Counted from the stretch's first letter, positions 2,261 through 5,325 are shown. The stretch is DNA of 5,325 bases from a virus (IMGVR_UViG_3300005715_000008), one strand, 5' to 3'. Notes: generated by a model not told the origin, from the sequence alone. Program-made: numbers and translations.

Positions 2261-2671
2261 ATGAAGCAAACAATCTTCCTCCGAACTAAGCAACAACAGC
2301 AAGCCGCAATAAATGCCATCCTCGCAACACCACTCGATAAAGACAAGCCAATCACCATCCGCATTACTGACTACAAGCGCAACCTTGACCAGAACGCAAA
2401 ATTTCACGCGATGCTGTCGGATATCGCTCGTCAGGTTCAATGGTGCGGCAAATGGTTAAAACCGGAACAATGGAAGGTTTTGTTGATTAGCGGTCATGCA
2501 GTGGCAACAAACCTGGAAGCTGATGTTTTGCCCGGGCTTGAAGGCGAATACGTCAACATCCGCGAAAGCAGCGCGCAGATGAGTGTGAAGCGTATGGCAA
2601 GTCTGATTGAGTACACAACAGCGTGGGCTATTGGTCAGGGTGTCAGATTTACCGACAGGAGGTACGAATGA
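2261..2671 (+). CDS. ninB: NinB (Orf-family recombination mediator)
   Basis: 136-aa ORF with strong RBS AAGGAG 7 nt upstream of ATG 2261. Sequence pattern ([30 protein letters not shown]...) matches my recollection of lambda NinB/Orf; position in a nin operon. Confidence 0.85.
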
Positions 2672-2850
2672 GACGACAGCGACGAAGTTTCACCGACATC
2701 ATCTGCGAAAACTGCAAATACCTTCCAACGAAACGCTCCAGAAATAAACGCAAGCCAATCCCCAAAGAATCTGACGTAAAAACTTTCAACTACACGGCTC
2801 ACCTGTGGGATATCCGGTGGCTAAGACATCGTGCGAGGAATACAAGGTGA
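2668..2850 (+). CDS. ninE: NinE-like small protein (60 aa)
   Basis: ATG at 2668 overlaps the ninB stop (ATGA) and is preceded by GGAGG. Arg-rich N-terminus [18 protein letters not shown]; length and position match lambda NinE. The track ORF begins at an upstream in-frame ATG (2623) that lies inside ninB and lacks an RBS. Confidence 0.65.
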
Positions 2851-3017
2851 TTGACCCAAATCGAAGTTACGAACAAGAAAGCGTTGAGCGAGCTTTAACG
2901 TGCGCTAACTGCGGTCAGAAGCTGCATGTGCTGGAAGTTCACGTGTGTGAGCACTGCTGCGCAGAGCTGATGAGCGATCCGAATAGCTCAATGTACGAGG
3001 AAGAAGACGATGGCTAA
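2847..3017 (+). CDS. ninF: NinF-like small Cys-rich (zinc-ribbon-like) protein
   Basis: GTG at 2847 overlapping the ninE stop (GTGA) with AGGA RBS upstream. Product [38 protein letters not shown]... has a CxxC...CxxCC arrangement and matches my recollection of lambda NinF. Alternative start ATG 2805 (track) would overlap ninE by 46 nt. Confidence 0.65.
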
Positions 3018-3824: not shown

Positions 3825-4473
3825 TGGCAGCAAATACCGAAATATTTGGGTAGTTGGCGATCTGCACGGATGCTACACGAACCTGATGAAAAAACTGGAG
3901 ACGATAGGATTCGACACCAAAAAAGACCTGCTTATCTCGGTTGGCGATTTGGTTGATCGCGGTACAGAGAACGTCGAATGCCTGGAATTAATCACATTCC
4001 CCTGGTTCAGAGCTGTACGTGGAAACCATGAGCAAATGATGATTGATGGCTTATCAGAGCGCGGAAACGTCAATCACTGGCTGCTTAATGGCGGTGGCTG
4101 GTTCTTTAATCTCGATTACGACAAAGAAATTCTGGCTAAAGCTCTTGCCCATAAAGCAGGTGAACTTCCGTTAATCATCGAACTGGTGAGCAAAGGTAAA
4201 AAATATGTCATCTGCCACGCCGATTATCCTTGTGATAAATACGAGTTTGGAAAGCCAGTTGATCATCAGCAGGTAATCTGGAACCGCGAACGAATCAGCA
4301 ACTCACAAGACGGGATCGTGAAAGAAATCAAAGGCGCGGACACGTTCATCTTTGGTCATACGCCAGCAGTGAAACCACTCAAGTTTTCCAACCAGATGTA
4401 TATCGATACCGGCGCAGTGTTCTGCGGAAACCTCACATTGATTCAGGTACAGGGAGAAGGCGCGTGGGCATAA
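3802..4473 (+). CDS. ninI: NinI serine/threonine protein phosphatase (lambda PPase type, calcineurin-like metallophosphatase)
   Basis: From ATG 3802 (RBS GGAG upstream) the product begins [29 protein letters not shown]... and carries the metallophosphatase motifs GDLHG, GDLVDRG, GNHE; it matches my recollection of lambda protein phosphatase almost residue for residue. The track ORF start at 3727 is an upstream in-frame extension inside ninH. Confidence 0.9.
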
Positions 4474-4982
4474 GAGAACTAAACCTCACCAAAGAACAGC
4501 ATGAGTGGCTGAATGGCTGGCTTGAACTGTGGGGCGCATGGGTTTATTCAGGTCGTCTGGAAAAGCGCATGAGCAGCGTAATAGCGAAGTTCATGGAGAG
4601 CGTAGAGCCGGGAAGAGTTATGACAAGGCCAATGTGCAATGATGATGATGGAATGTTGATTTCTCAGGTCGTCGATTCCGTCATGTACATTGACAAGAAA
4701 GCCTTTGGCATCCTCCTCAGCTACTACGCTCATGGTTCATCTAAGCGAGCAATTGCATCCTACTATCACGCGGCTGCAAAGCCACGCAAGATGTGTGGAC
4801 GTGGTGGCGAGGGATGGAGAAAACCTTCACTGGCAACCTGTAGAAACGAAATTGACGACATCCTGAAAGCGTCATTATTTGTTTTATACCAGCCAATGCA
4901 AAATGCTTTCAAAATGCGTAAACGTGTTGAGAAAGTTAAGCATGTTGCTGTTAAAAGCCTTGACATGCAATTAGCCATTTAG
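4464..4982 (+). CDS. Q: Late-gene antitermination protein Q (non-lambda Q family, possibly Q21/Q82-like)
   Basis: 172-aa ORF directly after ninI (GTG 4464 overlapping the ninI stop region, RBS GGGAGAAGG upstream) and directly upstream of a consensus-like promoter plus terminator, which is the canonical position of Q. Sequence does not resemble lambda Q as I recall it; family assignment is from memory and synteny only. Confidence 0.6.
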
Positions 4983-4989
4983 CCATAAT
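4960..4989 (+). promoter_or_regulatory. Late promoter pR'-like (sigma70), probably including the Q-utilisation (qut) region
   Basis: -35 TTGACA (4960-4965), 18-bp spacer, -10 CATAAT (4984-4989); overlaps the Q stop codon (4980-4982). Predicted transcript start around 4996-4998. Confidence 0.55.
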
Positions 4990-4999
4990 TAGAGGGTAA

Positions 5000-5045
5000 G
5001 CTGCCGTTAGTGACTCTTAAGTTGCAACGGTGGCTTTTTTTTATT
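5000..5045 (+). terminator. Rho-independent terminator, tR'-like
   Basis: Imperfect stem g5000-t5008 paired with a5026-c5034 (9 pairs including two G-U), followed by TTTTTTTTATTT (5035-5046). Lies about 40-50 nt downstream of the predicted pR' start, the expected position of the terminator that Q overrides. Confidence 0.5.
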
Positions 5046-5046
5046 T

Positions 5047-5121
5047 GGGTCAGTCGTATAAAGGTCATTACGGAAGGCTGTTAACCTTCTTATCGTGGTT
5101 CGAGTCCACGCTGTCCCGCCA
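5047..5121 (+). tRNA. tRNA gene, anticodon GUU (Asn-like), 75 nt with encoded CCA
   Basis: Manual cloverleaf: acceptor 5047-5053 / 5111-5117 (one U-U mismatch at pair 4-69), U8, D-arm with A14 and G18G19, anticodon stem GAAGG/CCTTC with loop CTGTTAA (U33, anticodon GTT), 4-nt variable loop, T-arm CGTGG-TTCGAGT-CCACG, discriminator G, CCA 5119-5121. Confidence 0.6.
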
Positions 5122-5126
5122 AACAT

Positions 5127-5202
5127 GCTGGTTTAGCTCCAATGGTAGAGCAGTCGCCTTGTAAGCGAATGGGTAGCGGTTCAAGTCCGTTAACCAGCAC
5201 CA
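5127..5202 (+). tRNA. tRNA gene, anticodon UGU (Thr), 76 nt with encoded CCA
   Basis: Manual cloverleaf: acceptor GCTGGTT (5127-5133) / AACCAGC (5192-5198) perfectly paired, D-arm GCTC-CAATGGTA-GAGC, anticodon stem 5153-5157 / 5165-5169 (top pair non-Watson-Crick) with loop CTTGTAA (anticodon TGT), T-arm AGCGG-TTCAAGT-CCGTT, discriminator A, CCA 5200-5202. Confidence 0.7.
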
Positions 5203-5319
5203 TAACTGAGCCGTAGCCACTGGCTATTCTGAATTCATCAGTGATAGTTATGCTGCGGCCTTCTTTTTTCCCCTTCCCAATATAAGAACTACGCAATCCG
5301 TTACTGGCGGAGGCGTTGC

Positions 5320-5325
5320 TATGAA
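5320..5325 (+). CDS. Start of an unidentified downstream gene (only ATG plus 3 nt in window)
   Basis: ATG at 5320 preceded by GGAGG (5309-5313) at appropriate spacing; + strand, downstream of the Q/pR'/tRNA block. Identity cannot be determined from 6 nt. Confidence 0.3.

Follow-up and report, generated by a model that had tools for sequence, protein, structure and literature searches.

A tRNA-Asn gene followed by a tRNA-Thr gene is annotated in the genome records of both phage 21 and phage Sf6, the latter with the remark 'similar to phage 21', and the same pair is annotated in BTP1, SPN9CC, vB_SosS_Oslo, HK446 and HK-type coliphages, P22-like prophages and others. Published accounts of Sf6 and of P22-like prophages already refer to these tRNAs (PMC8022706, PMC2629481). 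In the case of BTP1, the lytic operon has been reported to start right after the two tRNA genes, and the transcriptome study of this phage handles both genes as expressed features (PMC7067206).

Recently, a function has been published for the tRNA-Thr of phage 21. Old, the P2 protein that acts as effector in P2-lambda interference, is lethal because it cleaves host tRNA-Thr(UGU) in the anticodon stem (Govande et al. 2025, PMC12445682). This tRNA is its main target, and the cuts, at positions 28 and 40, each follow the C in one of the paired CNG motifs (PMC12445682). The same study showed that phage tRNA-Thr(UGU) genes rescue cells from Old toxicity, and that the tRNA-Thr(UGU) of phage 21, called 'tRNAThr21', protected against P2-OLD. 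tRNAThr21 remained uncleaved without ATP, its cleavage was much reduced at 150 mM K+, and in vitro P2 Old hardly cut it at site 1; the resistance was ascribed to C28U/G42A together with a shortened anticodon stem (PMC12445682). The host's own tRNA-Thr genes protected little or not at all (PMC12445682), which means that sequence differences matter, and not dosage alone, and the rescue of cells by a Thr tRNA required the UGU anticodon class (PMC12445682). It should be noted that the rescue was partial, the colonies remaining small, that the tRNA was supplied from a plasmid and not in an infection of a P2 lysogen by phage 21, and that the trigger used was Gam, or inhibition of RecBCD (PMC12445682).

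[quoted passage not shown] The cut adjoins a conserved U36-A-A-U39, and the substitution U39A abolishes cleavage of tRNA-Lys (PMC12409363). The Lys, Thr and Asn tRNAs of phage T5 jointly neutralise the PARIS system; tRNA-Lys(UUU) was the prime target of AriB and was indispensable for rescue in that work (PMC12409363). HepS of Gifsy-1 also cleaves tRNA-Thr, mainly the GGU species with UGU being secondary, and is a possible further opponent.

Here we analyse a stretch of viral DNA of 5,325 nt (IMGVR_UViG_3300005715_000008), which as a whole we refer to as the window. An earlier note on this DNA had pointed to two tRNA genes near its end and had interpreted them as a support for the translation of late or cargo genes with rare codons. 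We show below that the two genes are the phage 21-type pair, and that for this cassette evasion of tRNases is better supported than the usual rare-codon explanation, which is the older and weaker hypothesis. The DNA comes from a lambdoid/P22-like temperate phage and makes up its replication-nin-Q segment, and Pfam searches identified a DnaB-type helicase, NinB, NinF, NinG, NinH, a NinI-type phosphatase and the Q antiterminator among the products of the window. The features around the tRNA genes are as follows.

4464..4982, + strand: gene of the late antiterminator Q, Q21 family, 172 aa (Pfam Phage_antitermQ, 90 bits)
4960..4996, + strand: late promoter pR' (score of 11/12 in the promoter scan, and homology to phage 21)
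4960-4965, + strand: -35 element of pR', TTGACA
4970-4985, + strand: direct repeats ATTAGCCA/TTTAGCCA, the putative Q-binding element
4984-4989, + strand: -10 element of pR', CATAAT
about 4996, + strand: transcription start, by homology
4998..5046, + strand: tR', intrinsic terminator of the late leader, a 17-bp hairpin followed by U8
5047-5121, + strand: tRNA-Asn(GUU), 75 nt (ARAGORN and Rfam RF00005)
5127-5202, + strand: tRNA-Thr(UGU), 76 nt (ARAGORN and Rfam RF00005)
5210..5269, + strand: long imperfect hairpin (5210-5259) followed by CUUCUUUUUU, between the tRNA genes and the holin gene
5309..5325, + strand: start of an S21-type class II pinholin gene, with RBS GGAGG and ATG at 5321, truncated by the end of the window

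ARAGORN, run on all 5,325 nt, called exactly two tRNAs. Using cmscan, both were matched to Rfam RF00005 over model positions 1-71 of 71, with 55.3 bits (E 2.8e-10) for tRNA-Asn and 61.5 bits (E 5.8e-12) for tRNA-Thr, well above the gathering score of 29. The anticodons and outer boundaries called by ARAGORN are those of the GUU/Asn and UGU/Thr genes that had been proposed at 5047-5202, and both genes are confirmed by Rfam. The encoded CCA that had been described for both tRNAs is present as well (GCCA at 5118-5121 and ACCA at 5199-5202), and the acceptor-stem mismatch and weak D-stem that had been noticed in the first tRNA appear in the cmscan alignment as U4.U69 and as U13.U22, the latter cutting the D-stem to 3 bp. 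The same alignment contains a feature that is absent from the earlier note, namely a G27.A43 mismatch in tRNA-Thr that reduces its anticodon stem to 4 bp. Both anticodon loops have 7 nt (CUGUUAA in tRNA-Asn and CUUGUAA in tRNA-Thr), with U33 and a purine at position 37, and the T-loops, GGUUCGAGUCC in tRNA-Asn and GGUUCAAGUCC in tRNA-Thr, conform to GUUCRANY with the G53-C61 pair. In E. coli, the identity elements for Asn are G34, U35, U36 and G73, and those for Thr are G1-C72, C2-G71, G35 and U36. The tRNA-Asn of the window has the discriminator G73 and the anticodon stem GAAGG/CCUUC, and the tRNA-Thr has G1-C72, C2-G71, the discriminator A and the anticodon stem GUCGC/GCGAA, including U28 and A42. 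The aminoacylation identity elements for Asn and Thr are complete in the sequence of both tRNAs, which would be charged with the predicted amino acids. We are close to certain that both are intact elongator tRNA genes of genuine phage 21 type.

The 156 nt of positions 5047-5202 are 100% identical to phage 21 and Sf6, every column of the alignment being invariant, and blastn of the tRNA pair against AJ237660 and AF547987 also gave 100%. In phage 21 the pair is located at 39591-39746 of OL657228, with the same order and the same 5-nt spacer as in the window. The tRNA-Thr of the window was equated with tRNAThr21 via the phage 21 genome records and the description given in the paper (C28U/G42A and a shortened stem), and it has exactly the U28, the A42 and the G27.A43 mismatch described for tRNAThr21. 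Hence, the pair is already known and annotated in reference phages, among them phage 21, Sf6 and BTP1, and is not a newly seen cargo set; the suggestion of the earlier note that it was a different set does not hold as a novelty.

The Q protein of the window is 86% identical to that of phage 21, and the differences are concentrated in the C-terminal third, the part that contacts the Q-binding element (PMC8022706). The elements of pR' line up with the annotated pR', Q-binding element and transcription start of phage 21. The repeats ATTAGCCA/TTTAGCCA themselves are unlike the Q-binding element of phage 21 and match that of Sf6. The transcription start is the mosaic joint between the window and phage 21, and from about there on the two sequences align base for base, save for one extra T in the window. 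Thus, the flanks of the tRNA pair are mosaic: Q and the repeats, on the upstream side, are of Sf6 type, and the holin, on the downstream side, is of phage 21 (S21) type.

The hairpin and U-run of tR' fold with -20.2 kcal/mol (z = -5.0) and match the annotated phage 21 tR' position by position, the single difference being an extra T in the U-run of the window; the phage 21 record cites PMID 1704887 for the terminator. A simple terminator scanner did not pick up tR', probably owing to a bulge in the stem, and its assignment is based on folding and homology. The tRNA-Asn gene begins at the base right after tR', both in the window and in phage 21, and the holin ATG lies at 5321, so that the placement of the tRNA genes between tR' and the next gene, as stated in the earlier note, is borne out also by the alignment to phage 21. 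In a promoter scan of positions 4700-5325, pR' was the sole match on the + strand, and no separate promoter for the tRNA genes was found. The location of the tRNA genes between tR' and the lysis genes implies that their expression is late and dependent on Q. The operon would run in the order pR', tR', tRNA-Asn(GUU), tRNA-Thr(UGU) and holin; tR' would be read through only by RNA polymerase modified by Q, the tRNAs would be transcribed only then, and host tRNA-processing enzymes would subsequently excise them from the late transcript.

The holin gene is located about 120 nt downstream of the tRNA pair. Its start and RBS align with S21-71 of phage 21, and a 'class II holin family protein' is annotated at the corresponding place in related E. 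coli prophages. The region in between (5203-5320) folds with -36.4 kcal/mol (z = -3.0). Its hairpin at 5210-5259, which is not annotated in phage 21, is kept in phage 21 and in Sf6, and the U-run is missing in Sf6. The element at 5210-5269 looks like a further terminator or like a structure that would protect a 3' end.

The pair is present in 369 of the 5,426 complete E. coli genomes (~7%), in which RefSeq labels the genes tRNA-Asn and tRNA-Thr. Among 122 examined loci having the Asn anticodon arm, 106 carry the Asn and the Thr gene. A scan of contigs with an 18-mer of the Asn anticodon arm yielded 15 matches, ten of which are unrelated hairpins; the true matches belong to Escherichia sp., E. 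albertii, Shimwellia and two contigs of gut MAGs, which are probably mis-binned. Outside E. coli, Salmonella and Shigella, there are few species-level matches (Escherichia sp., E. albertii and Shimwellia). The sequence of the cassette is almost invariant over the 122 loci and the 369 E. coli genomes. Most copies have the U4.U69 mismatch, which is replaced in rare variants by a G.U or U.G wobble. Five viral contigs contain a compensatory change in the acceptor stem, from G5-C68 to U5-A68, which indicates selection for the folded tRNA; this is the single recorded case, the homologues being so nearly identical that covariation analysis would be uninformative. A variant with three tRNAs exists in about eight viral contigs and consists of Asn, a hybrid Thr that is phage-type towards its 5' end and thrU-like towards its 3' end, and a glyT-like Gly(UCC). 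In most of these contigs the anticodon stem of the middle tRNA is 3 bp long (ACUGA/UCAUC); this tRNA is missed by ARAGORN and scores 49 bits with Rfam.

What could be the benefit of carrying these two tRNAs? In our view, the cassette as a whole probably serves counter-defence. OLD-family Toprim tRNases, which competing P2-like prophages and satellites carry, destroy host tRNAs; according to the mechanism we propose, the phage tRNAs would be nuclease-resistant stand-ins for these, and the ACA and AAC/AAU codons of late proteins would still be readable after the defence has fired. Several lines of evidence point in this direction. First, the anticodons are those of known nuclease targets: for P2 Old the prime target is UGU, which is also among the major targets of AriB, and GUU is a secondary target of AriB, host tRNA-Asn being also among the tRNAs compared for cleavage by Old. 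Second, in both tRNAs the anticodon loop is the same as that of the host tRNA and the anticodon stem has been rewritten.

Thr anticodon stem: ACUGA/UCAGU in the host; GUCGC/GCGAA in the window, with U28, A42, G39 and G41, and 27.43 unpaired
Asn anticodon stem: GCGGA/UCCGU in the host; GAAGG/CCUUC in the window, with both CNG motifs lost, and with C39 and U41

Thus, both tRNAs carry substitutions at the cleavage motifs, and in tRNA-Asn the CGG/CCG of host asnT has become AAG/CUU. These substitutions are a weak discriminator, since the two tRNAs are divergent throughout; at 62-70% identity to the host genes stem changes are to be expected by drift, and the loss of CNG or U39 discriminates poorly. 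Third, the genes of phage 21 include one for Gam, and the closest prophage has a gene for an anti-RecBCD protein. This connects these phages with Old, because inhibition of RecBCD is the kind of trigger that activates it.

The strength of this proposal differs between the two tRNAs. For tRNA-Thr, whose sequence is that of the published tRNAThr21, it is likely that counter-defence is the main selected role. For tRNA-Asn the case is made by analogy, from its anticodon and its stem, and the chance that counter-defence is its main selected role is slightly below even. Either tRNA may shield the phage in the native context of the late operon. The cassette does not include a tRNA-Lys(UUU), and hence cannot by itself defeat the PARIS system of the T5 work.

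The usual explanation for phage tRNAs is that they supplement the host pool. According to this explanation, the two tRNAs would add decoding capacity for codons that late or cargo genes use in excess, and so would speed up the synthesis of virion and lysis proteins. We counted codons in the annotated genes of phage 21, of the closest prophage, of 11 flanking host genes and of the window, with the following results for ACA.

Late genes of phage 21: 12.8 per 1000 codons, 19% of Thr codons
Late genes of the closest prophage: 18.6 per 1000 codons, 30% of Thr codons
Eleven flanking host genes: 7.7 per 1000 codons, 13% of Thr codons
Early genes of phage 21, the closest prophage and the window: 11.0-14.0 per 1000 codons, 30-34% of Thr codons

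ACA is thus about twofold enriched in the phage genes compared with the host flank. On the one hand, the enrichment in the late genes of phage 21 and of the closest prophage agrees with codon supply, as does the fact that in E. coli K-12 ACA is decoded only by the tRNA of the single-copy gene thrU (PMC12445682). On the other hand, the enrichment includes the early genes, which as a share of Thr codons are equally or more enriched and which are translated before a tRNA of the late operon exists. For Asn, codon frequency did not differ between the genes of phage 21, the closest prophage and the window and those of the host flank, and AAC accounts for 50-53% of the Asn codons in phage genes versus 56% in the host flank. 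Both Asn codons are decoded by one GUU tRNA, and the E. coli genome contains several asn tRNA genes; for this reason there is no rare Asn codon that would need supply. Coat genes that are rich in AAC speak for codon supply, with AAC making up 15 of the 19 Asn codons in the P22-like coat gene of the closest prophage and 24 of 25 in that of phage L (PMC8022706), but the major capsid gene of phage 21 prefers AAT (nine AAT, two AAC). In addition, P22 has no tRNAs despite having similar late genes (PMC8022706), and extra host tRNA-Thr genes give little or no rescue from Old, in contrast to the phage version (PMC12445682). Rare-codon supply is therefore weakly supported for ACA and not supported for the Asn codons, so that of the rare-codon role put forward earlier only the enrichment of ACA stands. 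As the explanation of the cassette we regard codon supply as unlikely, and replacement of cleaved tRNAs by nuclease-resistant ones is better supported. A modest contribution to the decoding of ACA is plausible and is compatible with counter-defence.

It has also to be considered that the cloverleaves might act mainly as RNA-processing signals, in which case cuts by RNase P and RNase E would release the lysis mRNA from the Q-loading leader and fix the 5' end and the stability of this mRNA, decoding being incidental. The late transcript is long and polycistronic, and the position of the tRNAs in its 5' leader would suit such a role, as would the strong structures on either side of them, tR' upstream and the 5210-5259 hairpin downstream. 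But full tRNA identity has been kept, including the host-identical 7-nt loop, the discriminator, the CCA and the invariant positions of the T-loop, all of which would be superfluous in a mere signal. Moreover, the same anticodon pair recurs in unrelated phages, many lambdoid phages have no tRNA at this site, and rescue by the Thr tRNA depends on its UGU anticodon class (PMC12445682). Taken together, we consider a processing role highly improbable.

The aligned positions shared with host genes number 48 of 78 for tRNA-Asn and asnT (62% identity) and 55 of 78 for tRNA-Thr and thrU (70%). An att-site remnant would be partial, near-identical to a host gene and located beside int/attP; in the closest prophage, a distance of about 11 kb separates int and att from the tRNA genes. 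An origin as an att-site or host fragment, which the earlier note had named as the outcome that would speak against it, was rejected, as both genes are full length and only 62-70% identical to asnT and thrU. More generally, the idea that the genes are non-functional relics, be it decaying pseudogenes or pieces of host tRNA genes that integration or excision left behind, is barely credible: U4.U69 and the 3-bp D-stem of tRNA-Asn, the 27.43 mismatch of tRNA-Thr, and the existence in this phage family of a real remnant (Stx2c phage 1717 has just the first ~24 nt of tRNA-Asn after tR') could be cited in its favour, but both genes have their CCA and score far over the Rfam threshold, they lie in the late leader at a distance from attP, their near-invariance is accompanied by a compensatory stem change, and the tRNA-Thr of phage 21, which has the same sequence, is biologically active (PMC12445682).

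Returning to counter-defence, the function of the tRNA-Thr has already been published, and the significance of the find as such is small. The companion tRNA-Asn matches a second known nuclease target. If the tRNA-Asn is nuclease-resistant, the cassette would mark, in about 7% of the complete E. coli genomes, a conflict of prophage against prophage, between lambdoid phages on one side and Old and PARIS borne by P2 and P4 on the other, and this would help to account for the repeated occurrence of certain tRNA combinations among temperate phages. We tentatively extend this to a conjecture that we hold to be possible, though with less confidence than the role of either tRNA. Asn(GUU) and Thr(UGU) may be a co-selected two-tRNA cassette directed against the OLD-family Toprim tRNases (P2 Old, AriB of PARIS and their relatives), in which an Asn tRNA predicted to be cleavage-resistant would be needed for full escape. 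The U4.U69 mismatch, the weak D-stem and the rewritten anticodon stem would then be part of evading contacts outside the anticodon arm, and the pair would have been assembled independently in lambdoid/P22-like, P1 and Cyrano-like phages that face the same nucleases borne by P2 and P4.

Finally, we compare the locus with the known systems. The closest are the pairs of phage 21, Sf6, BTP1, SPN9CC and HK446, which occupy the same place, after the tR' of a Q21-family promoter and upstream of the lysis cassette. The tRNAs of the window do not differ from those of phage 21 and Sf6; what differs is the mosaic of the flanks. The trio of Stx phages (ileZ-argN-argO type, between Q and stx) likewise follows Q, pR' and tR' in the late leader. 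In Stx2c phage 1717 the Q gene is of Q21 type, pR' and the Q-binding element are of phage 21 type and tR' is identical, but the tRNAs are located about 200 nt further downstream than the pair in the window and have the anticodons CAU, UCG and UCU instead of GUU and UGU, in agreement with the earlier remark that the anticodons of the window are unlike the Ile/Arg trio of Stx phages. In phage 1717 the ~24-nt 5' remnant of tRNA-Asn is followed by unrelated DNA that leads towards the CAU/UCG/UCU tRNAs and stx2c, and on the basis of this remnant the stx region appears to have replaced an Asn/Thr cassette.

Phages L and ST64T have late-leader tRNAs at the same site, about 46 bp past the late transcription start, and the first of these is also Asn(GUU) (PMC8022706). 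The second has been reported to be Leu(UAA), unlike the Thr(UGU) of the window (PMC8022706). The region of these phages is 89% identical to the query taken from the window.

With the Lys, Thr and Asn tRNAs by which T5 counters AriB of PARIS, and with the phage tRNA-Thr(UGU) that counters P2 Old, the tRNAs of the window share the target anticodons, an anticodon loop identical to that of the host and a stem that is altered at the cleavage motifs. T5 itself is a lytic phage with about 25 tRNAs, whereas the phage of the window is temperate and has two, placed in a Q-dependent late operon, and the identity between the tRNAs of T5 and those of the window is only 60-64%.

An adjacent Asn(GUU)-Thr(UGU) pair, in the same order and with a 2-nt spacer, is also present in P1 and in the 108-kb phage Cyrano, which are temperate enterobacterial phages as well. 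Their Thr tRNA is 80% identical to that of the window, but their Asn tRNA only 57-62%, and their pair lies in another genomic context, outside any Q-dependent late leader. CUG/CAG is still present in the Thr tRNA of both phages, as is UAAUC|A in the Asn tRNA of P1, so that the recurring pair is not uniformly 'resistant-looking'. The recurrence of Asn(GUU)-Thr(UGU) in unrelated temperate coliphages suggests, as far as sequence comparison goes, that the combination itself may be selected.

A neighbouring tRNA-Asn(GUU) followed by tRNA-Thr(UGU) occurs in three unrelated temperate coliphage types, namely the lambdoid Q21 module, to which the window's pair belongs, P1 and Cyrano:

Window 5047-5202: Asn-Thr pair of the lambdoid Q21 module
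L143 (phage P1) 525-678: Asn-Thr pair
L142 (phage Cyrano, 108 kb) 1173-1420: Asn-Thr pair, here with an extra Ser(UGA) tRNA

The Thr tRNAs of P1 and Cyrano are 80% identical to that of the window, whereas their Asn tRNAs share just 57-62% identity with its counterpart. Together with the recurrence of the pair in unrelated phage types, this hints that the Asn(GUU) and Thr(UGU) combination itself is under selection.

The cassette also exists in a variant form on viral contigs, where three tRNAs follow each other in the order Asn, a hybrid Thr(UGU) and a glyT-like tRNA-Gly(UCC):

L034 1210-1440, minus strand: three-tRNA cassette
L107 1279-1509, plus strand: three-tRNA cassette
L013, L078, L079, L089, L097 and L109: further copies

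The hybrid Thr(UGU) combines a phage-type 5' part with a host thrU-like 3' part, and the variant cassette looks like the product of recombination with the host thrU-tyrU-glyT region. In most copies the anticodon stem of the hybrid has 3 bp (ACUGA/UCAUC); this form scores 49 bits against the Rfam tRNA model and receives no ARAGORN call.

Downstream of the window's pair, the stretch 5203-5320 has a fold with a z-score of -3.0, and one element lies between tRNA-Thr and the holin ribosome-binding site:

Window 5210-5269: long hairpin with imperfect pairing (5210-5259), then CUUCUUUUUU

This element may act as a second terminator or may stabilise the 3' end of the tRNA precursor. Phage 21 retains both the hairpin and the U-run, but without annotation there, and Sf6 retains the hairpin but not the U-run.

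Over the whole window, the closest relative is the P22-like prophage adjoining ybhC in E. coli 23AR1217 (L141 13946-45264), which covers 94% of it at 97.9% identity. This copy is probably defective, because the annotation lists the genes for the terminase large subunit and the portal protein as truncated pseudogenes. It additionally has genes for a PIN-domain protein and for an anti-RecBCD protein. Between ninB and ninG (2623-3017), the ORF list of the window gives two overlapping short ORFs with provisional starts, 2623-2850 and 2805-3017, the latter matching NinF only over residues 32-56; the related prophage has NinE and NinF annotated as separate genes at this position.

The window and phage 21 (L001) meet at a mosaic joint near the late transcription start (window 4960-4997, L001 1465-1500). 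On its 3' side the two are essentially identical. On its 5' side, both the C-terminus of the window's Q and the direct repeats ATTAGCCA/TTTAGCCA, a putative Q-binding element, are Sf6-like; the corresponding element of phage 21 is different (ATTGAGCA/AATGAGCA). This is consistent with Q and its DNA site varying together. Comparison of Stx2c phage 1717 (L005 13520-13720) with window 4955-5135 shows a pR' and Q-binding element of the phage 21 type and an identical tR'. Its tRNA-Asn is reduced to the first ~24 nt, and is followed by unrelated DNA, tRNAs with anticodons CAU, UCG and UCU, and stx2c. In phage 1717 an Asn/Thr cassette seems to have been replaced by the stx cargo region, with the breakpoint within tRNA-Asn.
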